Virus record (IMG/VR): IMGVR_UViG_3300036770_005357
DNA from: a virus
Lineage: Duplodnaviria > Caudoviricetes
Reading direction: 5' to 3' (one strand)
DNA: 64,000 bases
Part shown: positions 47,891 to 57,560 of the stretch, one piece after another
How positions within the stretch are numbered: position 1 is the first letter of the stretch
Layout of the letters: each line of letters opens with the position of its first letter
Position numbers and translations under genes: made by a program
Notes under the pieces: model-generated
The model's input: the letters and a program-made list of their open reading frames with translations, nothing else
What the model was told of the DNA's origin: nothing
Database searches by the model: none

Positions 47891-48610
47891 TTACACCATC
47901 TTTTTTAGTTTTTTTAATATAAATTTTACGAGACCACTTCTTACAATGTCGTCTTCGTCAAACTTAAATATAAATATGCCGTTCTGTCTACTTTCTTCAT
48001 CATCAAACAAATTCATTATAGAAACAAATCCACTTTTACCGTTTATATCGCTTTGATCTGGATCTCCACAAATATATAACTTACTAAATTCACCTACTCT
48101 TGTTATAAGCGTAACAAGTTCTTTCTTAGTCATATTTTGTGCTTCGTCTGCTACAATTACCTTAGCATTCCAGTTTAAACCTCTTAAAAAGTTAATTGGA
48201 AAACCATGAATTCTTTCTTCCTTTTTAAGTTTTTCTATATCCGATCGTTGTAATAATTCTTCCAGTTTATCAATAAGTGGTTGTATGTATGGACTCAATT
48301 TATCATCCATTTCGCCTGGCAAAAATCCTAATTTACTATCACTACTTTCTACAGCACTTCTTACATAAATTATTTCACTAACTCTTTTTTCGTTTATTAA
48401 ATGTAATCCCGCTAAAATCGAAGTAAATGTTTTTGATGTACCTGCTGGTCCGGATATAAAAACCATTTTAGTATCTTTATCTCTTAATGTTTTTAATAAT
48501 TCTACTTGTTTTGGTGTTAGTTCTCTATCATTTATCTTTATACAATCTTTAAGTTTATCATTTTGATGAATTTTTGGACTTGTGTCTCTTTTTTTGTTTT
48601 TCTTGCTCAT
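47891..48610 (-). CDS. phoH: PhoH-family ATPase
   Basis: GPAGTSKT, LGFLPGEM, FLRGLN, ADEAQN, LITRVGE, GDPDQSD, DIVRSGLV. Confidence 0.95.
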   Translation of the reverse strand: MSKKNKKRDTSPKIHQNDKLKDCIKINDRELTPKQVELLKTLRDKDTKMVFISGPAGTSKTFTSILAGLHLINEKRVSEIIYVRSAVESSDSKLGFLPGEMDDKLSPYIQPLIDKLEELLQRSDIEKLKKEERIHGFPINFLRGLNWNAKVIVADEAQNMTKKELVTLITRVGEFSKLYICGDPDQSDINGKSGFVSIMNLFDDEESRQNGIFIFKFDEDDIVRSGLVKFILKKLKKMV

Positions 48611-48905
48611 GTTTTTCTAATATTTTTTTTAGTTTACTAACACGATCGCAGAACTCATATTGTTCCGTTTCAACATAAAACTTAAATATATTTTCTATGT
48701 TGTCTTTAAATGAGGGGTATTCCAAAATAACAATAAAATCTGAATCTTTAAAACTAAATAATTCTACAGATGGAATATCGTTACTAACCGCATGTTGTAC
48801 AGCCGATACAACATGTTCTGTTAATTTTACTTTATTGTTGATGATAAAACTCTCCATTTCGTCATAGTCAGACGGCAAAACCAATGGAGTCAATAACTTA
48901 CTCAT
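48558..48905 (-). CDS. hypothetical protein
   Basis: 115-aa ORF preceded by TATTTAT. Confidence 0.75.
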   Translation of the reverse strand: MSKLLTPLVLPSDYDEMESFIINNKVKLTEHVVSAVQHAVSNDIPSVELFSFKDSDFIVILEYPSFKDNIENIFKFYVETEQYEFCDRVSKLKKILEKHEQEKQKKRHKSKNSSK

Positions 48906-48936
48906 TCGTAAATAAATAGTATTTAGAAAATAAAAA

Positions 48937-48958
48937 AGGCGTTACCGAAGTAACGCCT
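48937..48958 (-). terminator. intrinsic terminator with cUUCGg loop
   Basis: Minus strand AGGCGTTAC-TTCG-GTAACGCCT followed by TTTTT. Confidence 0.88.
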
Positions 48959-48979
48959 ACAATAGTATTGTTTACTATC

Positions 48980-49201
48980 TTACTTTTTAGTCTTATTTTT
49001 CTTAACCTTTTTAGACTCAACAGGTTTGTCTGGAGTTTGTGATGGAATCGGATTAGTTAGTTCTGCCAATCTAAACCTAGCAGTTGAACGCCAAGAATTC
49101 TTGGTTATATTTGATGCAAACTCATAGGACTTGCCTCTTTCCAAGAGTGTCTTGATCTCACTATCACTATTTGCTTTTCTAATTTGTTCTCGTAATCCCA
49201 T
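48980..49201 (-). CDS. small basic hypothetical protein
   Basis: 73-aa ORF. Confidence 0.7.
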   Translation of the reverse strand: MGLREQIRKANSDSEIKTLLERGKSYEFASNITKNSWRSTARFRLAELTNPIPSQTPDKPVESKKVKKNKTKK

Positions 49202-49203
49202 AA

Positions 49204-49374
49204 TTACTTACCTTTCACTTCAACAATTTCCAACTTACTACCATCTGGCCAACGAGTAATAATCTTGTGCCAATGATCATACTCGGTCTTAGCATCATCC
49301 CTTGAGATGTATTCTGAATCAGAAACCCTTGCACCATTCCTAATGACTACATACTTAACATTATTATTTGACAT
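49204..49374 (-). CDS. 56-aa hypothetical protein
   Basis: Read manually: MSNNNVKYVVIRNGARVSDSEY...WPDGSKLEIVEVKGK; its stop lies 2 nt before the next ATG. Confidence 0.7.
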   Translation of the reverse strand: MSNNNVKYVVIRNGARVSDSEYISRDDAKTEYDHWHKIITRWPDGSKLEIVEVKGK

Positions 49375-49493
49375 ATTGTCTATTTTTACTATTTGTTTTT
49401 TTAATAATTGGTAAAATATTAGTTGTGTAAGATTACCAGTCTTACATAAGTTAATTATACATACGAATTTGCGTTCGTCAAAACTTTTTTTTA

Positions 49494-49853
49494 TTATTCT
49501 AAATTTCTGTTATAAAATTCTACATTTTTGTGCTTGACAACACATTCCGGATACAAAATTTTATATTCATCCAATGATCTATTGTAGACTCTTACACCAC
49601 CAAAAGGATAACTTGGTTCACCAACATTGTAAAATGTAACTAAATAGATATCATGTGTTTCTGGATAATAAGCAGTTAATACTCTTCTTCCTTTTTCCAC
49701 AGACTTATCTAATTTTAATTCTTCCGGTATATTTTTAAAAACAAAATGTTGTGATCCACCTATTGTATAAAGTTTTTTAATAATAGTTAAATCTTTACTT
49801 AGTTTTGAAATTTCTCCGTCTACTTCAATTATTTTCTTTTTTAATTTCGCCAT
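49494..49853 (-). CDS. hypothetical protein
   Basis: 119-aa ORF. Confidence 0.7.
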   Translation of the reverse strand: MAKLKKKIIEVDGEISKLSKDLTIIKKLYTIGGSQHFVFKNIPEELKLDKSVEKGRRVLTAYYPETHDIYLVTFYNVGEPSYPFGGVRVYNRSLDEYKILYPECVVKHKNVEFYNRNLE

Positions 49854-49945
49854 AATATGATATTACTTTATAATAATTTATTAAACAATTAAAAATATTT
49901 TTTAAAATTTTTTTTAATATATATTAGAAAACTTACTAAAATACT

Positions 49946-50236
49946 ATGAGTGATGTTATTAAATTTACAGAAGAGGAAATGCAAGAAATTGCAGGTTTAC
50001 AAGCTAAATATCAACAAAAGATCTTTGAACTAGGTCAATTACAACTACAAGAAATTGATCTAGAACAAACAAAGAAAGCTTTTGCAGATAAGAAAACTGA
50101 ACTACTTGATTCTTGGAAAACTATTCAAAAGGAAGAAGAAACTGTTTTGAACAAGTTAGCTGCAAAATATGGTAATGGTAGCTTGAATCTACGAGATGGT
50201 ACTTTCAAAGCAGTTCCTCCAACCACAACCGCTTAA
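49946..50236 (+). CDS. small coiled-coil hypothetical protein
   Basis: 96 aa, followed by a terminator. Confidence 0.8.
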   Translation: MSDVIKFTEEEMQEIAGLQAKYQQKIFELGQLQLQEIDLEQTKKAFADKKTELLDSWKTIQKEEETVLNKLAAKYGNGSLNLRDGTFKAVPPTTTA

Positions 50237-50254
50237 TTAAATAAGTGCAAAATT

Positions 50255-50279
50255 AAAGCCGGTCTTAATGACCGGCTTT
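50255..50279. terminator. bidirectional terminator between convergent genes
   Basis: AAAGCCGGTC-TTAAT-GACCGGCTTT. Confidence 0.88.
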
Positions 50280-50284
50280 TTTGT

Positions 50285-50461
50285 TTATTGTGTTGAACTA
50301 GCTTCTTCAACAATTGCTTTAATCTCCGCTTCAATTTCCTTCATTTTTTCTTTATATCCAGCGGCTACATCCTTGAAATCTTTCTTTACATAAAGAAGCT
50401 TCTCGGTTAATTCATATACTTTTTGTTCTGCTTGTTGTTTTGTTAATTTGATATTACTCAT
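50285..50461 (-). CDS. 58-aa coiled-coil hypothetical protein
   Basis: Read manually: MSNINLTKQQAEQKVYELTEKLLYVKKDFKDVAAGYKEKMKEIEAEIKAIVEEASSTQ; ends at the terminator. Confidence 0.7.
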   Translation of the reverse strand: MSNIKLTKQQAEQKVYELTEKLLYVKKDFKDVAAGYKEKMKEIEAEIKAIVEEASSTQ

Positions 50462-50488
50462 AGTTTTGTTTATAGATATTTATTATAT

Positions 50489-50707
50489 ATGTCACAAGTA
50501 AATTTTCACGATATCAAAGTTAATAATCATGAAATTACAATATGGGACGATAGATTCGTTGTATTAAGACATCCCGAAAAATGTGATATGTACGAAGATG
50601 AACACTGTAGAGAACACTTATTAAAGTATTTATCTGATGAAGGTTACATTATAAGTGATACAGGTGGTATAGTTGTTATAGATAGTTATATTGATTTTGA
50701 ACCGTAA
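50489..50707 (+). CDS. hypothetical protein
   Basis: 72 aa, TATTTAT 5 nt upstream. Confidence 0.7.
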   Translation: MSQVNFHDIKVNNHEITIWDDRFVVLRHPEKCDMYEDEHCREHLLKYLSDEGYIISDTGGIVVIDSYIDFEP

Positions 50708-50709
50708 AT

Positions 50710-51093
50710 TGGTGGACGTGGCGAGAGTTGAACTCGCGTCTTTAAAAGGTAACCTATACCAGACTACATGCTTATATATTTTAATATTGTTAGGAATAAT
50801 AATTAAAAATATCTAAAAATATTATTCTTAAGATTTATAAAAATTTGACCGTCAACATAAATCAAATTAACAGTCTCAATCTGATGGTTTACACCCAATA
50901 TCACTATCAGATATCATAATATTGAATGCGCTGCAACTCAGGCAGCTAGTGCTACGACATCATCATAAGAGAAGTCATAGCTGATTACATTATCTTCAGC
51001 AGTTAATGTTTTAATAGATGATTAAAGAGGCCAACTATTATCCTCTACATGCCTAATATAAGTGTACTTTTAAATCGATACCAGTACACGCCC
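50710..51093 (-). ncRNA. ssrA: tmRNA (one-piece, 384 nt); tag AEDNVISYDFSYDDVVALAA* at 51000..50938
   Basis: 5' GGGCGTG pairs with 3' CACGTCC-A-CCA (G3:U70). T-arm GCGAG-TTCAACT-CTCGC, GCATG start of helix 2/pk1, TAACT before the resume codon, tag ends ALAA-stop. Confidence 0.93.
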
Positions 51094-51102
51094 ATAAAAT
51101 TT

Positions 51103-51176
51103 TGGAGCGGGTAGCCGGAATCGAACCGGCACGTCGACCTTGGCAAGGTTGCAGGCTACCACTACATCATACCCGC
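51103..51176 (-). tRNA. trnG: tRNA-Gly(GCC)
   Basis: GCGGGTA...CCTT-GCC-AAGG...GGTTCGATTCC...TACCCGCTCCA. Confidence 0.93.
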
Positions 51177-51188
51177 GCTCTCTAAACT

Positions 51189-51264
51189 TGGTGGACCCGA
51201 CAGGATTCAAACCTGCGACCTATAGCTTGCAAAGCTACCGCTCTATCAACTGAGCTACGAGCCC
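51189..51264 (-). tRNA. trnA: tRNA-Ala(TGC)
   Basis: GGGCTCG-TAGCTCAG...TAGC-TTTGCAA-GCTA...CGGGTCCACCA, G3:U70. Confidence 0.93.
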
Positions 51265-51337
51265 GTACAAAAAATATATAGTATTCTACACCCACTAATT
51301 GATATTTATATATACATAAATTAAACAAAGGATAATT

Positions 51338-51490
51338 ATGATATTAACAATCGTATTAGTAATAGCAACAGCAGTAGGAGTATTCCTATTCGTAAAGAAT
51401 AACCCACTCAGAGCTAAGAAAATTGATGACGCCGCTAAAGAAGTCATCAAGGAAGTAGAAGAAAAAGTAGAAGAAATTATCAAAAAGTAA
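51338..51490 (+). CDS. 50-aa single-pass membrane protein
   Basis: Read manually: MILTIVLVIATAVGVFLFVKNNPLRAKKIDDAAKEVIKEVEEKVEEIIKK; AAGGA upstream, terminator downstream. Confidence 0.75.
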   Translation: MILTIVLVIATAVGVFLFVKNNPLRAKKIDDAAKEVIKEVEEKVEEIIKK

Positions 51491-51513
51491 TTATTCTCCT
51501 AACTTAAATCAAG

Positions 51514-51543
51514 CGCCGTACCTCATAAAGTACGGCGTTTTTT
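51514..51543 (+). terminator. intrinsic terminator
   Basis: CGCCGTAC-CTCATAAA-GTACGGCG followed by TTTTTT. Confidence 0.85.
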
Positions 51544-51545
51544 AT

Positions 51546-51640
51546 TGGATGACCGTGGGTTGCGAATATACGAGGATTTCACCTTTGTTCCAATGTCTAT
51601 CTAACGTCAACTTCACCCTTCTCCTCCTCCACGGGAGGTG
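51546..51640 (-). ncRNA. GC-rich putative structured RNA at the distal end of tRNA array A
   Basis: CCGTGG/CCACGG closing stem (51553-58/51629-34), GAGGA/TCCTC, T-loop-like AGGTGAAATCCT, ends TCCA. No ORF. Confidence 0.4.
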
Positions 51641-51734
51641 TTTTACAATTCTATATCACTAACGATCAAATCTTATTATCCCATTTACATATCGTAGTGT
51701 CCGACACTACAATCGGTAAACGATATTTTAAAAT

Positions 51735-51808
51735 TGGCAGGGGATGGTGGAATCGAACCACCACTAGTTGATCCAAAGTCAACTGCACTACCATTATGCA
51801 AATCCCCA
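51735..51808 (-). tRNA. trnQ: tRNA-Gln(TTG)
   Basis: GTTGA-CTTTGGA-TCAAC; GGTTCGATTCC; CCA encoded. Confidence 0.92.
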
Positions 51809-51818
51809 ATTGAAAGTG

Positions 51819-51889
51819 AGCGGGTAGCGGGAATTGCACCCGCACATAGGCTTTGGAAGAGCCTCAGGCTACTATTACATCATACCCGC
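51819..51889 (-). tRNA. trnG: tRNA-Gly(TCC), CCA not encoded
   Basis: AGGCT-CTTCCAA-AGCCT; T-loop TGCAATT. Confidence 0.88.
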
Positions 51890-51895
51890 AAAAAT

Positions 51896-52384
51896 TTAAA
51901 TTATTTTTAATTCACAATCACTAATTTTTTCAAATTTAATTAATCTAGCATGATACTCACCGTGATGATTCGGACATATTGCAAACATGTTTCCAACTTC
52001 ATACTTTCCACCGTCTTTTCCTTCAATAAAACGATGAACGTTATAAACTTTATTATAAGTACATCCATTTACCATGCAATGATTAAAGTTAAATTTATCT
52101 TTGAGTAATTTCAATCTATATTGAGTTTTTGATCTAAATTTATCTTTTGAATATGGTCCTCTTAGATTTGATGCTGCACAAACATTACTACAAAATTTTT
52201 GTGCAAATCGTTCCGGTAAAAATGATTTATTACAAAATTTACAATTTATAACAACTCGTTTAGTGATTGTATTGAAATAACATTTACGACAACAATATTT
52301 CTTTTTTTCAACCGGTCTTTTATATAAAATATTGTTACAATTTATATTGTCACACTTATGATTAGGAGTTCTATTTAATGTCAT
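51896..52384 (-). CDS. HNH endonuclease with zinc-finger repeats, inside the tRNA array
   Basis: YCCRKC, CKFC, FCSNVC; HRF...GG...NMFAICPNHH. ATG 52384 follows TATTTAT. Confidence 0.85.
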   Translation of the reverse strand: MTLNRTPNHKCDNINCNNILYKRPVEKKKYCCRKCYFNTITKRVVINCKFCNKSFLPERFAQKFCSNVCAASNLRGPYSKDKFRSKTQYRLKLLKDKFNFNHCMVNGCTYNKVYNVHRFIEGKDGGKYEVGNMFAICPNHHGEYHARLIKFEKISDCELKII

Positions 52385-52435
52385 ATAGATAAATATGCTT
52401 ACGCTCATTAAACCACTCTATTATTTTAATAAAAA

Positions 52436-52528
52436 TGGCGGAAGCGAAGGGTGCTGCCCCCTCAGTGGCTTTTAAACCACGGCAGTTTAGCAAACTGCTG
52501 TAGAAACCTGACTATCTACGTCACTTCC
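52436..52528 (-). tRNA. trnS: tRNA-Ser(GCT)
   Basis: GCAGT-TTGCTAA-ACTGC, long variable arm GTGG/CCAC, atypical T-loop GGCAGCA. Confidence 0.88.
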
Positions 52529-52613
52529 ATAAAATTATTTAAAGCATCTCCGATTTCTTCAAGGGACGAACATTATCAGTCCTCGGTTCTAAGCTCGTAG
52601 AGTTGTATTGAAA

Positions 52614-52704
52614 TGGTGGTGAGAGAGGGATTCGAACCCCCGGAGGCTTTTAAACCTCGTCTGATTTCAAGTCAGGTGCCTTAAACCAACTCAGCCACCT
52701 CACC
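52614..52704 (-). tRNA. trnS: tRNA-Ser(TGA)
   Basis: CTGA-CTTGAAA-TCAG, long variable arm, GGTTCGAATCC, CCA. Confidence 0.92.
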
Positions 52705-52710
52705 TCAAAT

Positions 52711-52795
52711 TGGTGGGCATAGAGGGACTTGAACCCCCACAGAGTAATCCACAAGAACCTAAATCTTGCGCGTCTGCCAATTTCGCCATATGCCC
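52711..52795 (-). tRNA. trnL: tRNA-Leu(TAG)
   Basis: TGGCGAAATTGGCAGACGC; CAAGA-TTTAGGT-TCTTG; CCA. Confidence 0.93.
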
Positions 52796-52800
52796 GAAAA

Positions 52801-52879
52801 TGGTCGGAGTAGTTGGATTTGAACCAACGAAATTGTCCAGTTCCCAAAACTGGCCGGGTGACCGCTCCCGAATACTCCG
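52801..52879 (-). tRNA. trnP: tRNA-Pro(TGG)
   Basis: CGGAGTA/TACTCCG; CCAGT-TTTGGGA-ACTGG; atypical D-arm. Confidence 0.88.
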
Positions 52880-52888
52880 ATTAAAATT

Positions 52889-53584
52889 TTAAAAATCTAT
52901 TGAATAATATTTACACCATTTTCTGATTGCGTTATCTGACACGCCATATTTTTTACCCAACGATAAAAATGTATTATTTTTTATTTCTTGTTCTAATATT
53001 TCTTTAGAAGGTCTCTCTACTTTTCTTAATTTTTTCATAGAACATATTCTACATACATTAGTATAACCACTAGTTTCTAACTTACATTCTATACAATTAT
53101 ATTTTTTAGTTTTTTTAGATTTTCCACAATACGTGTCTGTTTGTGAGTGACAATTTGGACATAACAATCTTAAATTAGATAAAGTGTTATTAACATGATC
53201 ACCGTCAATGTGATCTAATTGTAATTTTATTGGTTTATTATTCCATATATCTCTTATATTACATTCAGCACATTTATTTTCTACTAAATTAAATTTTATT
53301 AATTTATTTTTTAACCAAACTGTTTCTATGTCGGAATTTTCTTTCAATCTAAGTAATAACTCATCTTTAGAAATTGTATTAGCATTTTTAATTGAAAAAA
53401 TTTCGTTCTTAGAAAGAAAATGTGATGTATCAATTTTTTCAATTTGTATTCTTCGTTTTATTGTTCTATAATTTCCGCCTTCTTTTCTCATGTTCAATGT
53501 TTTACAAACATCGGACATACAACTATTACTTTTAATAATTTTTTCAAAATCTTCTTTTGAAATATTCCAAATTTTACTTTTCAT
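52889..53584 (-). CDS. HNH endonuclease inside the tRNA array
   Basis: CAEC...LQLDHIDGDHVNNTLSNLRLLCPNCHSQT; C-terminal HTH-like LGKKYGVSDNAIRKW. Confidence 0.93.
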   Translation of the reverse strand: MKSKIWNISKEDFEKIIKSNSCMSDVCKTLNMRKEGGNYRTIKRRIQIEKIDTSHFLSKNEIFSIKNANTISKDELLLRLKENSDIETVWLKNKLIKFNLVENKCAECNIRDIWNNKPIKLQLDHIDGDHVNNTLSNLRLLCPNCHSQTDTYCGKSKKTKKYNCIECKLETSGYTNVCRICSMKKLRKVERPSKEILEQEIKNNTFLSLGKKYGVSDNAIRKWCKYYSIDF

Positions 53585-53652
53585 AGTACAATATCATATC
53601 TTTGGTAATAAATAGATAAGAGTTCAACTGAACGCTTATTTTTTATTAAAAA

Positions 53653-53728
53653 TGGTGGGCGAGGAGGGACTTGAACCCCCGATAGGCACAGTGTAAGTGT
53701 GCTACTTTAGCCACTAAGTTACTCGCCC
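53653..53728 (-). tRNA. trnV: tRNA-Val(TAC)
   Basis: GCACA-CTTACAC-TGTGC; GGTTCAAGTCC; CCA. Confidence 0.92.
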
Positions 53729-53742
53729 GTAAAAATTACTAT

Positions 53743-53832
53743 TTCCGTCATCGCCATTTGGGTTCTGCACAAAGCATATCACCCAGTGACCGATCAAGTG
53801 TTTAAGGGCACACCAGATAGAGTTTCAAGCCC
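53743..53832 (-). ncRNA. conserved structured RNA, copy A (leader of tRNA array A)
   Basis: 48/58 and 16/18 nt identity blocks with 62868..62988, with compensatory base changes. Confidence 0.7.
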
Positions 53833-53849
53833 GTCGTCATTATGTACTA

Positions 53850-53877
53850 ACTATACCACTAAATTTAATACTGTCAA
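53850..53877 (-). promoter_or_regulatory. sigma70-type promoter of tRNA array A
   Basis: TTGACA-16 nt-TATAGT with extended -10 TG. Confidence 0.75.
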
Positions 53878-53890
53878 CTATCAAATCAAA

Positions 53891-53920
53891 AACCCACCAT
53901 CTTTTTCAGATTGGTGGGTT
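53891..53920. terminator. intrinsic terminator
   Basis: AACCCACCA...TGGTGGGTT flanked by A/T runs. Confidence 0.85.
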
Positions 53921-53937
53921 ATTTTTTAAGCAACAAA

Positions 53938-53985
53938 CAACCATGCCAATCATGTACCTTGTGGTACTTGACTACTCGATGGTTG
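53938..53985 (-). ncRNA. long imperfect hairpin in its own promoter-terminator unit (A)
   Basis: CAACCAT/ATGGTTG, AGTCA/TGATT and GTACC/GGTAC nested stems. Confidence 0.45.
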
Positions 53986-54052
53986 TGAAACTGTGTTTAA
54001 CATACAACAATATATATCATAAAGATTCTCAAATGTCAGATAAAAAAATAAA

Positions 54053-54074
54053 CCCGCTGGATTTCTCCAACGGG
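54053..54074 (-). terminator. intrinsic terminator after outer-membrane protein gene
   Basis: Minus strand CCCG-T-TGG...CCA-G-CGGG followed by TTTATTTTTTT. Confidence 0.75.
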
Positions 54075-54100
54075 CTTATTATAATTTAATCTAATTTAGA

Positions 54101-54814
54101 TTAGAATGTGAACTTAGCACCAGCGCTATAAACAACGGTGTTCTTGAATTGCTTAACGCCGAGGTTAGCACTCTTTACAACATCAAAGTTGTTATCATAC
54201 CAACCTACATCAACATATGGTGTAACGACACCAATTGGAGTGTTGATTGGACGAGTCAAGGTACCATGTACATTGACAGCATCATACGAGGTCATACGAC
54301 CCCATTCAACCGCTGGTGTAATGACAAATCCGAGGAACAATTTTTGTTCACGGGAAGCACCAACGAAATAACCACTTTGTTGAGTTTCTTGGAAGAAAGC
54401 GCCGCGGATATATGGAGTTACATATGGATTCTCAAGAGACAACTTAGCACCGAGTTCAGTTGAACTTTGAAGTGTTCCGGCTGTGATTTGATGACGAGTT
54501 GCGGTTACATCGCCACGAAGGGCGAAATCACCATAAACCTTAATGCTCTTACCGAGGCCGAGGGTCCAATGAGTTTGGTTTCTTCCTTCATCAGATAAAA
54601 ATACGCCTCCGATGTAAGCGTCTACATACTTGAATGATTTGCTAACACCAAGTGCTCCGTATGGAGTGGCAAGAGTGTAAGCAACGCCATCAACTACATA
54701 GTAGTTGTTATAACCACCATCTAGTGTAAGACTAATTGGTGAGCCAGCATCAGCAGCCGAAAGGCCAAATACTGATACCAACAATGCTGTTAATACTGAT
54801 AATAGTTTCTTCAT
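54101..54814 (-). CDS. outer-membrane beta-barrel protein with signal peptide
   Basis: Signal peptide MKKLLSVLTALLVSVFGLSA; alternating aromatic beta-strands; BamA-type C-terminal YSAGAKFTF. Confidence 0.85.
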   Translation of the reverse strand: MKKLLSVLTALLVSVFGLSAADAGSPISLTLDGGYNNYYVVDGVAYTLATPYGALGVSKSFKYVDAYIGGVFLSDEGRNQTHWTLGLGKSIKVYGDFALRGDVTATRHQITAGTLQSSTELGAKLSLENPYVTPYIRGAFFQETQQSGYFVGASREQKLFLGFVITPAVEWGRMTSYDAVNVHGTLTRPINTPIGVVTPYVDVGWYDNNFDVVKSANLGVKQFKNTVVYSAGAKFTF

Positions 54815-54912
54815 AATATTAATATTTCCTTTTTGTTTTGTTTATAATGTGACACCGGCCACATTTTTAGGAGTAATCCTAAATCTTATTATATATATTT
54901 TTTATAAAACTG

Positions 54913-55233
54913 TTAAAATTTATTTAATTTCTTGAGTCTCTTACTAAGCGCTCTATCTTTCTCTGGTAGATAGACATATGAAGCTTTAAAATTTTCTTCA
55001 TTTTCTGTTAGAACGCTGATGGTATCTTCAGTTACATCTAAAACTTTACCAATGGCATTCTTAATAAATCTAAAACTATTGACGCCTTCAATGTCAATAC
55101 AGATACCATAAGACATATCTCTATATTGTACATCAGCGACTCCATAATGAGTTTTCAACATAGTTTTAATTTGGTTCTTTTTATCTTCGTTTAGAACCAT
55201 ATTAGCCATTTCTAACTTTGTTAATGTATTCAT
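54913..55233 (-). CDS. hypothetical protein
   Basis: 106 aa with its own sigma70-like promoter. Confidence 0.75.
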   Translation of the reverse strand: MNTLTKLEMANMVLNEDKKNQIKTMLKTHYGVADVQYRDMSYGICIDIEGVNSFRFIKNAIGKVLDVTEDTISVLTENEENFKASYVYLPEKDRALSKRLKKLNKF

Positions 55234-55241
55234 ATTTTATT

Positions 55242-55269
55242 ATTATATTTGTAATTTAATTTATGTCAA
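55242..55269 (-). promoter_or_regulatory. sigma70-type promoter
   Basis: TTGACA-16 nt-TATAAT, ending 8 nt before the ATG at 55233. Confidence 0.75.
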
Positions 55270-55277
55270 TAAAAAAC

Positions 55278-55308
55278 GAAACGATTAACGGGTTAAATTA
55301 ATCGTTTC
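55278..55308 (-). terminator. intrinsic terminator
   Basis: GAAACGATTAA...TTAATCGTTTC followed by GTTTTTT on the minus strand. Confidence 0.75.
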
Positions 55309-55334
55309 AATTTGCGTAAGTTGTTGTTAATTAA

Positions 55335-56534
55335 TTACTTATTTTTCTTTAATGCTTTTAATTTCTTCTTCAATTCGTCTGGTTTATTTACGGCTAACCA
55401 TCTAGCATAATCTTCTTTTTCTCTACGATCTAATTCATTATCTCTATAAATTTTTGCATTTTGTTTCACAATATCTCTGAATGGATCACCACTTTCTTTT
55501 TTTATTGGAATATTTTTACCGGTCAAATCTAATATCTCATTTGGAATATTAGTAGTAACAATCTTCCTTTCAATACTTAATATCTCCAACTCTTCAGGTG
55601 TCAAATTTCTTAAAATTGACTTTACATCTTCATCGTCACGATTGCTGCTTGGCTTATTTACTGTATTTAAAATATAATTGAATGGAGTACTTGTCTTGTA
55701 TACTACATCAGCAGTTCTTTCACTGCCTGATTTTGAAGCACCTTTATATAATAATAGTGTAGTACCTTCACGACCACCGCCAGTAAATACTTGAACAGTA
55801 GCCGCTGGATAATTACCTTCTAAATCGTAAGCATCCAATTCTTCTTTAATCAGTTGTTTAATTAATTGTTTAAGTTTTGTTTCGTTCATAGAAATTCTAT
55901 CTTTGAGTTTATTAAAATTCTTTTCAACTGATTGCCATCTTTGTTTATCTTTATCACTGTCATCGGGACTTGGCAACACATCTTGTAAAGTCAATGGACT
56001 ATTATGAAAATCACTTACTAACTTTTCCATATCATCCATCATTTTTCTATAATCACCCAATGTTGGATCAGCCGACATTACATCATCTTTTTCTTTAGTT
56101 GCTTTTTCAATTGCAGATTGATCGCCTGTCTTTTTAGCATTTAAATATGATTTGAATGTAAGCGATCTCTTTTGTTGCCAATCCTTATATTCAGGTTTGG
56201 AATAGTGTTCTTTGTCCCAAGCATCTCGTTGTCTATTTATTACATCAAGCTTACGAAAATTGATGAAACTAGTAACCGAATCCATCAAATTACTTAATAA
56301 CACTTGTAGATCTTGATCATCAACACTTCCACCGATTGGATACTTGTTCATCACATGTAACCTAGAAAAACTAGTAGCATTCAACAAATTTTTTAACTTC
56401 TTTCCAACCAACTTCTTCATAAAGTCTTCTACACTATTGGTAGATTGTGCAATTTGTTGGAACGGAACCAATGCCTGTTCATTGGATTCTTTAATGGTTT
56501 CTAATATCAGCTTTTTAAAATCTCTAAGTTTCAT
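55335..56534 (-). CDS. hypothetical protein with two 'L..LI.E' leader-like helices
   Basis: MKLRDFKKLILETIKES and internal MNETKLKQLIKQLIKEEL. Confidence 0.75.
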   Translation of the reverse strand: MKLRDFKKLILETIKESNEQALVPFQQIAQSTNSVEDFMKKLVGKKLKNLLNATSFSRLHVMNKYPIGGSVDDQDLQVLLSNLMDSVTSFINFRKLDVINRQRDAWDKEHYSKPEYKDWQQKRSLTFKSYLNAKKTGDQSAIEKATKEKDDVMSADPTLGDYRKMMDDMEKLVSDFHNSPLTLQDVLPSPDDSDKDKQRWQSVEKNFNKLKDRISMNETKLKQLIKQLIKEELDAYDLEGNYPAATVQVFTGGGREGTTLLLYKGASKSGSERTADVVYKTSTPFNYILNTVNKPSSNRDDEDVKSILRNLTPEELEILSIERKIVTTNIPNEILDLTGKNIPIKKESGDPFRDIVKQNAKIYRDNELDRREKEDYARWLAVNKPDELKKKLKALKKNK

Positions 56535-56553
56535 ACCCTAATAAATATAAAAA

Positions 56554-56775
56554 CTATAGGGTTATTTCAGCAGATATTACATCATCATCAGAAAATCCAC
56601 CTATCTTAATAGATTTACCGTTACTTAAGTGTATTACTAATATTTGTAAATCACCGGTACTATTCTTAAGTGACTCAACCCTAAGCACTTGATTATCATT
56701 TAATTCATTCTTAATATCATCGCCTATAGAATCGGATTCAGCAAGTGTTCTTCTCAATGGATTTAATCGTATCAT
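56554..56775 (-). CDS. hypothetical protein
   Basis: 73 aa, TATTTAT 4 nt upstream. Confidence 0.7.
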   Translation of the reverse strand: MIRLNPLRRTLAESDSIGDDIKNELNDNQVLRVESLKNSTGDLQILVIHLSNGKSIKIGGFSDDDVISAEITL

Positions 56776-56814
56776 ATTAATAAATATTCAAAGTTAGTTA
56801 TATTTATAGATTAA

Positions 56815-57555
56815 ATGGCATTGGTAAACTATACATATCTTTTAGATCAAAACAACTTAATTAGTTGGTTAACTTCTATTTCCGAGACCGATCCTAATCC
56901 AACAATAAGAACTGCTGCCAAAAAAATAGCATTTAATGTAAGTGGAAATAAAATAATAGAAAGTTGGTATTATTATAACGAACTTTATAAAAAATATCAA
57001 TTTAAATTAGTAACCATAAATACCATAAACGGATTTAATGTAGTACTTTATTCTTATACAAATCAAGGTGAAAAATTTATAGGCAGTGTTAAAAAATATG
57101 TTCCAGCGAAACCTATACAAGTAAAAAGTTTATCTGTTCCAATTGTTGATGAAATTGGTACAACATATGATAGAACTCCTTCTATATCAGGATTTTCAGA
57201 CGCCAATCTACAAATTTACATTTACGACGGTGGTCAATTACTTGGTCAAACTACATCTAACGAACTTGGTGAATGGGAATTTACCGTAACAACGAATCTA
57301 TCATTCGGAAATCATTCAATAACTGCCGTAGCTTCAAACGGAACGGAATTCAGCAATTCCAGTAAAGTTGTAAATTTTACAATACTTGAAATAACCGTTC
57401 CCACTGTAACATTCACATCACCTACAGATGACACGACACCTACAATTACAGGTACAGCGCCTGCTTTAAGCACAGTCACGGTTTATAATAATGAAAGTCC
57501 GATAGGTACAACAACCGCTGATAGCGAAGGTAATTGGTCATTTACATTAACTTAA
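56815..57555 (+). CDS. protein with one complete and one half bacterial Ig-like domain
   Basis: DRTPSISG...GEWEFTV...GNHSITAVA (complete), then DTTPTITGTA...GNWSFTLT* (half). Confidence 0.85.
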   Translation: MALVNYTYLLDQNNLISWLTSISETDPNPTIRTAAKKIAFNVSGNKIIESWYYYNELYKKYQFKLVTINTINGFNVVLYSYTNQGEKFIGSVKKYVPAKPIQVKSLSVPIVDEIGTTYDRTPSISGFSDANLQIYIYDGGQLLGQTTSNELGEWEFTVTTNLSFGNHSITAVASNGTEFSNSSKVVNFTILEITVPTVTFTSPTDDTTPTITGTAPALSTVTVYNNESPIGTTTADSEGNWSFTLT

Positions 57556-57560
57556 AAAAC

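Follow-up and report, generated by a model that had tools for sequence, protein, structure and literature searches.

The tRNA arrays and their leaders

The DNA analysed here, a window of 64,000 nucleotides, is part of a 105,543-base IMG/VR virus record that is estimated to be 36% complete and comes from an uncultured freshwater giant phage, whose baseplate-wedge and long-tail-fibre genes mark it as myovirus-type. Two tRNA arrays lie on the minus strand of the window: array A (53728-50710) runs from tRNA-Val to tRNA-Gly and includes a tmRNA at its end (50710-51093), and array B (62821-61263) runs from tRNA-Thr to tRNA-Ile. Their first genes encode tRNA-Val(UAC) at 53653..53728 and tRNA-Thr(UGU) at 62730..62821, respectively, and HNH endonuclease genes are present within the arrays. 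No strong, convincing same-strand intrinsic terminator was found inside either array. Between tRNA-Gln and tRNA-Ala of array A there is a G+C-rich hairpin (51511-51540). As a terminator it is well formed on the plus strand but poorly so in the direction of the array, and array transcription might be held back there in part, ahead of tRNA-Ala, tRNA-Gly and the tmRNA.

Each array is preceded, in this order, by an intrinsic terminator, a promoter and a leader element. The promoters proposed in the first-pass annotation of the sequence are present on the minus strand exactly as described, TTGACA for array A (53850..53877) and TTGACG for array B (63002..63029), each followed after a 16-nt gap by TG-n-TATAGT, so that both -10 boxes are preceded by TG. 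Upstream of both tRNA promoters lies a further conserved module (53880-54020 and 63044-63190, minus strand) that comprises a promoter-like TATATAT box, a long imperfect hairpin with the A-type consensus CACAACCUAGUCAAGCC...GGUUGUUUGC, and a strong terminator; this module has been duplicated jointly with the leader. At the B loci, the 5' strand of the terminator, ACCGUCAC, can alternatively pair with upstream GUUGACGGU, an attenuator-like arrangement.

The annotation had placed one and the same structured RNA downstream of both promoters. Its coordinates for the two copies were right, and only the orientation had to be corrected: the RNA is on the minus strand, as are all positions given below. 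Copy A, which represents a short A type, has its whole core at 53748..53832 (97.4 bits and E 2e-20 with model R1) and is separated from tRNA-Val by an A/U-rich, unconserved spacer (53729..53747) that ends in AAUUUUUAC directly before the tRNA. Copy B, of the B type, extends over 62989-62849 when its 3' hairpin, P6, is included, and its core (62873..62989) scores 91.4 bits with the same model. The whole cores of the two copies align with each other, in agreement with the homology originally claimed, and the shared blocks of 25 nt and 18 nt occur exactly twice each in the window, where 0.00 and 0.10 occurrences are expected, and at only two sites in the entire 105,543-base record.

Fold and covariation of the element

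The fold is described here with pair columns numbered on alignment A3, which contains 38 sequences. Helix P1 joins columns 6-8 with 28-30 and has 3-4 bp (GGS/SCC), pair 5-31 being formed only sometimes; it corresponds to 53831-53829 with 53809-53807 in copy A, where 53832/53806 is optional, and to 62988-62986 with 62966-62964 in copy B. Helix P2 joins columns 19-27 with 80-88 in 9 bp, among them an invariant U-U and an invariant G-U in mid-helix (53818-53810 with 53801-53793 in copy A, 62975-62967 with 62926-62918 in copy B). Since the 5' strand of P2 lies inside the loop of P1 and the 3' strand of P1 comes directly after it, the two helices make up an H-type pseudoknot. The first-pass annotation had captured part of the fold and overlooked P1, and hence the pseudoknot. 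The first loop, L1, is an invariant 10-nt UUGAAACUCY (UUGAAACUCU at 53828-53819 in copy A, UUGAAACUCC at 62985-62976 in copy B). The third loop is A-rich and, depending on the lineage, carries nothing, a GNRA-capped mini-hairpin or a B insert of 30-50 nt. The additional segment noted earlier in copy B is such an insert (62962-62927), located in the third loop of the pseudoknot and itself structured, with a stem UGAGA/UCUCA. Pairing of its C-run with GGGG, which would create a second pseudoknot, is tentative because the alignment places the G's inconsistently and yields no clean pair count.

A bulged hairpin, P3-P4, starts two nucleotides past P2 (the linker CG of copy A is at 53792-53791) and joins columns 91-100 to columns 119-129, where the A at 125 is bulged out; its strands are 53790-53781 and 53763-53753 in copy A, where the bulged A is 53757, and 62915-62906 and 62888-62878 in copy B. 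Beyond it are a conserved internal loop, GWUA/GA, a short helix P5 that closes a variable loop (53776-53774 with 53768-53766 in copy A, 62901-62898 with 62894-62891 in copy B), and a conserved single-stranded tail, GAURA, which reads GAUGA in both copies (53752-53748 and 62877-62873). The internal loop of copy A, GAUA at 53780-53777 opposite GA at 53765-53764, had been taken as invariant, and the GWUA/GA form is what the family retains. A similar adjustment applies to GAUGACGGAA, also listed as invariant: its GAURA part is kept throughout the family, and its GACGGAA part is the 5' strand of P6 in B types and variable in A types. P6 itself (62849..62873 in copy B) is a hairpin of 10 bp with one bulged U and the loop UGAG, the general loop sequence of B types being YGAG. 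About 45 positions of the element are invariant; its minimal form is about 90 nt long and its overall size ranges from about 85 to 140 nt. Copy B has an A-C mismatch in P4 (62909/62885), where relatives have G-C or A-U, and a G-A at a position that is G-U in relatives, so that this copy is either slightly degenerate or uses a protonated A-C pair.

In alignment A3, 96.4% of the cells in paired columns are paired, a share that falls to 84.3% in shuffled alignments and to 32-45% with slid partner columns, and the covariation score is 0.269 as against 0.073 for shuffled alignments, none of 500 shuffles reaching the observed value. Alignment A4, which consists of 56 distinct metagenome sequences and was fitted with a model that does not contain P1, gives 95.4% paired cells and a covariation score of 0.232 versus 0.066; in it the P1 pair 8-28 is CG in 32 sequences, GC in 23 and UA in one, with zero mismatches. 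Changes on both sides of a pair are also found at 24-83 (UA, GC or AU), 27-80 (UA or AU), 94-126, 96-123, 97-122 and 106-115. The differences between the two copies that had been put forward as compensatory are borne out for GUG/CAC versus UUG/CAA, which is P2 pair 24-83, and for GUCA/UGGC versus GUCC/GGGC, which is P3 pair 94-126; both covary across 38-56 distinct homologues. The third such difference, UGC/GCA versus UGU/ACA in P5, is a real base pair between the copies and falls on a position that pairs unreliably in the family, its P5 neighbour, pair 106-115, being the one that covaries across those 38-56 homologues. The peripheral parts behave likewise: across 41 B-type sequences 98.5% of the P6 cells are paired and double-sided changes occur in 8 of its 10 pairs, and the B insert stem and P6 together have 97.7% paired cells, with both-sided changes in 11 of 15 pairs. 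The G-U pairs 23-84 and 92-128 are invariant and, together with the mid-P2 U-U, fit only the tRNA-sense strand, which rules out a DNA-level or antisense reading of the pattern. Folding of the single sequences gave z-scores of -0.3 and +1.1 and thus no signal, as is expected of a pseudoknot. On the basis of these data, the element very probably constitutes a real structured RNA family, and the central assertion of the first-pass annotation, a covarying structured RNA linked to phage tRNA arrays, is upheld; the RNA is also strand-specific.

Distribution and genomic context

The neighbouring gene for a 237-aa protein (54101-54814) led to syntenic relatives, the tRNA arrays of which are headed by the same element. 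The invariant 18-mer TTGAAACTCYATCTGNTG, which covers L1 and P2, is present in more than 117 viral stretches, of which around half belong to the family, a pattern for the 3' domain matched 75 viral stretches, and a two-anchor pattern retrieved more than 120 metagenome contigs, mostly from freshwater, with a few labelled marine, Tara or GOS. Exact 3'-motif patterns of the GAUGACGG type found no match in viral contigs because that stretch is unconserved in the family. In total, the viral and metagenome contigs contain 194 instances of the element with 82 distinct cores. A covariance-model search detected exactly two copies per record in each of three phage records, the window's own among them; two are found in G001 (295,831 bases, 100% complete by CheckV), 9 kb apart, and two in G002 (303,564 bases, 89% complete). 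A further model match, in G003/G005 (E 0.5), lies inside the gene of a beta-barrel protein and is spurious.

No element was detected by blastn against 50,697 GenBank phage records, and a search of one genome per species for 185,579 prokaryote species returned only two 3-kb phage contigs, probably mis-binned into metagenome-assembled genomes (MAGs); the search of 150 other genomes of the MAG's phylum with model R1 yielded nothing. A host-derived leader was therefore rejected, as mis-binned phage contigs are all that the genome collection holds and no cellular homologue appears in the genomes searched. The two contigs, JBIKJV010000426.1 and CAZCGJ010000056.1, carry phage tRNA arrays, and their assignment to MAGs labelled Phycisphaerales and Woesearchaeota is probably due to mis-binning. 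The Phycisphaerales label agrees with a PVC-type pseudopilin gene in array B of the window (61416-62081), a weak hint at the host. The element represents a new family of structured RNAs, encoded on the tRNA strand at the entrance to the two main tRNA arrays in a clade of giant tailed phages that are uncultured and come from aquatic habitats.

A TTGAC-type promoter is located at most 60 nt upstream of the element in 75 of the 82 distinct members, and a tRNA lies no more than 400 nt downstream in 69 of the 75 cases where this could be tested. Members of the A type precede tRNA-Val (32 cases) or tRNA-Pro (4), at a median distance of 32 nt and a spread of 21-114 nt, and those of the B type mostly precede tRNA-Thr (22 cases) or tRNA-His (7), at a median distance of 55 nt. 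The spacers of A types differ in sequence but are A/U-rich, nearly all with a terminal A/U run, and neither a terminator-like hairpin with a U tract nor a ribosome-binding-site platform was found 3' of the element. The element has never been seen between tRNAs in the middle of a run or at the end of one. Many B copies are preceded by tandem promoters; in B-type relatives such as L005 (3440-3560), L157 and L169, two sigma-70-type promoters stand about 90-110 nt apart with a small hairpin between them, a layout that recalls the P1/P2 promoters of rRNA operons. After the A-type leader of L003 (3300-3378) and L045 there is a tRNA-like sequence with a UAC anticodon-like loop and an aberrant body, which is not called by ARAGORN, the first called tRNA, tRNA-Pro, being 105 nt off.

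The element does not always head its operon, contrary to what the two copies in the window had implied. The two MAG contigs, like L070, L101, L118 and L057, have the order promoter, tRNA-Val, a 54-aa ORF (ORF54), element and tRNA-Pro, and in the L070-type lineage the element begins 10 nt past the ORF54 stop codon; L026 has the order promoter, 54-aa ORF, element and tRNA-Val. The L070-type arrangement implies that the element marks the entry into a tRNA run, independently of where the transcript starts, and that an operon's first tRNA need not be preceded by one. ORF54 (MENNVDKD...; L070:2957-3121), which is situated just upstream of the element in these six contigs and in L026, matches nothing in Pfam or PHROG and is missing from the window's own record, itself only about 36% complete, so that it is probably not an obligatory partner.

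Sixteen sequencing runs on record as RNA, of 20 runs listed from 14 studies, share a few sequence words with the stretch. Elements of relatives, with 90-99% identity over 53750-53834 and unlike sequence beyond, are present in contigs assembled from the RNA libraries of four studies. These contigs extend into the promoter region and the tRNA, and may stem from DNA carry-over or from read-through transcripts; accordingly, they carry no readable information on RNA ends, strand or expression level.

Known RNAs and possible functions

Neither copy matched any of the 4227 models of Rfam 15 in cmscan searches of 48000-64000 (E<=1) and of the two 3-kb loci (E<=10), the riboswitch, ribozyme, T-box, tmRNA, epsC/EAR and freshwater-motif models included, which accords with the initial statement that no known family is recognisable. 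A published catalogue comprises 8,495 candidate RNAs from IMG/VR (PMC10690425); the element could be listed among these candidates, and the main text of that work describes no tRNA-array leader. The RNA family is new and has no counterpart described for tRNA operons, and in kind it belongs with the known leader RNAs and phage non-coding RNAs. ARAGORN and the Rfam tRNA and tmRNA models call only the true tRNAs and the tmRNA, which speaks against a tRNA-like RNA. A tmRNA-like tag template was dismissed as well, there being no conserved or tag-like frame and the AUG in P5 being AUC in many members, and the peptide that copy A could encode, MTTGLKLYLVCP, is in a frame that is unconserved.

As the element is not followed by a terminator or ribosome-binding-site platform, any cis effect would have to concern elongation, Rho access or processing; its position at the entry, its presence once per array and twice per genome, and the tandem promoters of B types lead us to rank an antitermination-type role first. 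We advance this cis-acting operon-entry function tentatively, as the first of several possibilities and itself less probable than not. The host sigma-70 polymerase would transcribe the element as part of the tRNA precursor, and the folded RNA would act in cis at the start of the long untranslated stretch of tRNAs, engaging the elongating polymerase or its factors and rendering the polymerase resistant to Rho or to pausing in the manner of the rRNA-operon leader, lambda nut, HK022 put and Bacillus EAR; RNase P and RNase E might then remove it at the A/U-rich spacer. Like all four of these systems, the element occupies the start of a long operon, a short way behind a promoter or a short ORF; like putL/putR and nutL/nutR, it occurs once per operon and twice per phage genome; like EAR (the epsC motif), it has a complex conserved fold without a terminator platform; and, as in rRNA operons, B copies often stand behind tandem promoters. 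Elements that are not promoter-proximal directly follow the stop codon of the small ORF, on the border between translated RNA and the tRNA run, a placement shared by lambda nutR.

HK022 put RNA, which acts on the beta-prime subunit of the polymerase, consists of two adjacent plain stem-loops without a pseudoknot downstream of the lambdoid PL/PR promoters, and nut of boxA and a boxB hairpin, whereas the element combines an H-type pseudoknot with a bulged hairpin in a giant myovirus-type phage. The leaders, when read by eye, have no boxA-like block (GCUCUUUAACAA or CGCUCUUA), which counts against antitermination, and the YGAG loop of P6 is not a GNRA-like pentaloop as in boxB. The element has no sequence or covariance-model match to the antitermination leaders, and the operon to which it belongs encodes tRNAs. 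The GGCGRU of the tail is similar to the RfaH ops site GGCGGUAG, a likeness that we treat as chance because its GGC is the strand of a covarying helix; no gene of the NusG family, RfaH-like ones included, was found in three phage records, which also weighs against antitermination. A cut by RNase P at the first tRNA would soon sever the tether to the polymerase, and the tRNA-Val of the L070 lineage follows its promoter without an element. As no strong same-strand intrinsic terminator was found in the arrays, any need for antitermination is hypothetical, Rho sites not being predictable here. The claim of the first-pass annotation that the RNA controls expression of the tRNA arrays was graded as not supported, and its list of ligand binding, protein binding, processing and antitermination as too broad for one claim.

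The approximately 45 conserved positions, like the groove-lining loop, would equally fit a ligand pocket, a catalytic core or an RNA that acts in trans. Of these, a processed small RNA acting in trans is nearly as likely as the antitermination-type role in cis. It would be a small stable RNA gene riding on the tRNA operon, cut out as a folded RNA of about 110-170 nt by RNase P, acting at the following tRNA, and by RNase E, acting in the A/U spacer, and would bind or decoy a host or phage protein; its constant place directly before a tRNA, an intervening A/U-rich spacer of the kind expected for RNase E and RNase P processing, its occasional location inside an operon, the high dosage provided by two copies behind strong promoters, and an invariant single-stranded loop and tail that resemble a recognition surface all fit such a product. 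It could be compared with T4 RNAC/RNAD, GOLLD and ROOL, which are also non-coding, lie beside phage tRNA genes and are probably co-transcribed with them. However, the element is pseudoknotted and not cloverleaf-like as are the tRNA-like RNAC/RNAD, is 85-140 nt long compared with the 500-800 nt of GOLLD and ROOL, and differs from all of them by its fixed position before the first tRNA of a run. No copy occupies a mid-run or run-end position, in which a passenger would be served equally well by RNase P/Z, and the RNA-library contigs bridge its junctions with the tRNA and the promoter. A search for a pairing partner of the leader elsewhere in the arrays (an RNase III-type stem or an L1 target) gave chance-level matches only, and this absence of target complementarity also tells against a role in trans.

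A ligand-sensing, riboswitch-like aptamer is unlikely. It would hold a metabolite, ion or alarmone in the L1-lined groove of the pseudoknot and thereby tune elongation, Rho access or the access of RNases to the tRNA precursor. The invariant first loop, long and aligned with the second helix and its invariant non-canonical pairs, the A-rich third loop, and the variable peripheral domains around a fixed core all suit it, and an H-type pseudoknot of this build is the architecture of the SAM-II/SAM-V, preQ1-I/II/III and fluoride aptamers. The element differs from those aptamers in its conserved nucleotides, in having an extra conserved hairpin and no expression platform, and in standing upstream of tRNAs and not of metabolic genes, and no Rfam riboswitch matched it at E<=10. 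Its 3' flank is an unconserved A/U spacer in A types and P6 without an adjoining U tract in B types, so that neither a T-box nor a terminating riboswitch, whose aptamer is followed by mutually exclusive terminator and antiterminator hairpins with a U tract, is recognisable and a classical riboswitch is unlikely; there is no covarying alternative pairing either, and we know of no riboswitch that controls a tRNA operon. Equally doubtful, or slightly more so, is a self-cleaving ribozyme, or else an element dedicated to processing or insulation, which would set an RNA end before the first tRNA or shield the folding of the tRNA from upstream RNA. The compact pseudoknotted core, the many invariant unpaired nucleotides and the fact that the element always parts non-tRNA RNA, be it 5' leader or ORF, from tRNA would be consistent with this, and theta/HDV-like and hammerhead phage ribozymes are likewise small conserved pseudoknotted RNAs that flank phage tRNA genes. 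Theta ribozymes, however, abut the 3' end of a tRNA and the element lies 20-55 nt upstream of a 5' end. The HDV fold is a nested double pseudoknot in the order P1, P2, P3 hairpin, P1', P4 hairpin, P2', and the element has the order P1, P2, P1', an optional hairpin, P2' and the P3-P5 hairpin; the helix order also differs from those of twister and pistol. A hammerhead has CUGANGA and GAAA cores connected through stems I-III and a cleavable NUH, and is contradicted by the lack of the stem III partner GAGU for the GAAAC present and by a GCGAUGA without C3/U4 of the core, and no ribozyme model of Rfam matched. Furthermore, the distance to the tRNA varies (21-114 nt in A types), the 5' end of a tRNA is already made by RNase P, and an insulator would not need about 45 invariant positions. 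The proposal that conservation acts at the DNA level, as a promoter-proximal protein site or a homing-endonuclease target, or that a functionless promoter cassette was recently duplicated, is already disfavoured and in our estimate very improbable: promoter, leader and upstream terminator module do look jointly duplicated and the arrays do contain HNH endonuclease genes, but only on one strand do the compensatory changes preserve Watson-Crick and G-U pairing, about 80 distinct sequences share the same fold in spite of the divergence of stems and inserts between the A and B paralogues, and in some lineages the element is separated from the promoter.

The tRNA arrays of large phages help them to take over translation and to escape tRNA-targeting defences, and to our knowledge the expression of long untranslated phage tRNA operons has hardly been studied. 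A compact, conserved, pseudoknotted RNA at the entry of both arrays offers a clonable handle on this expression, and its small size and clear covariation make it suited to structure determination and to use as a genetic part. Should the element act on RNA polymerase, it would extend the group of put, nut and EAR to tRNA operons; ligand binding or self-cleavage would make it a new class of riboswitch or ribozyme, and release as a small RNA would make it a new abundant phage non-coding RNA. It is conceivable, though doubtful at present, that it stands for a new functional class, in which RNA alone reprograms the transcription or processing of a stable-RNA (tRNA) operon; such a class could take the form of a factor-independent, polymerase-binding antiterminator for phage tRNA arrays or of a riboswitch or ribozyme with tRNA supply as its output. 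The arrays of relatives also contain unusual tRNAs (L026:661-736; L145:1861-1936), namely one with a CUA anticodon, called as Pyl and possibly an amber suppressor, and one called with a four-base anticodon (CUCU).
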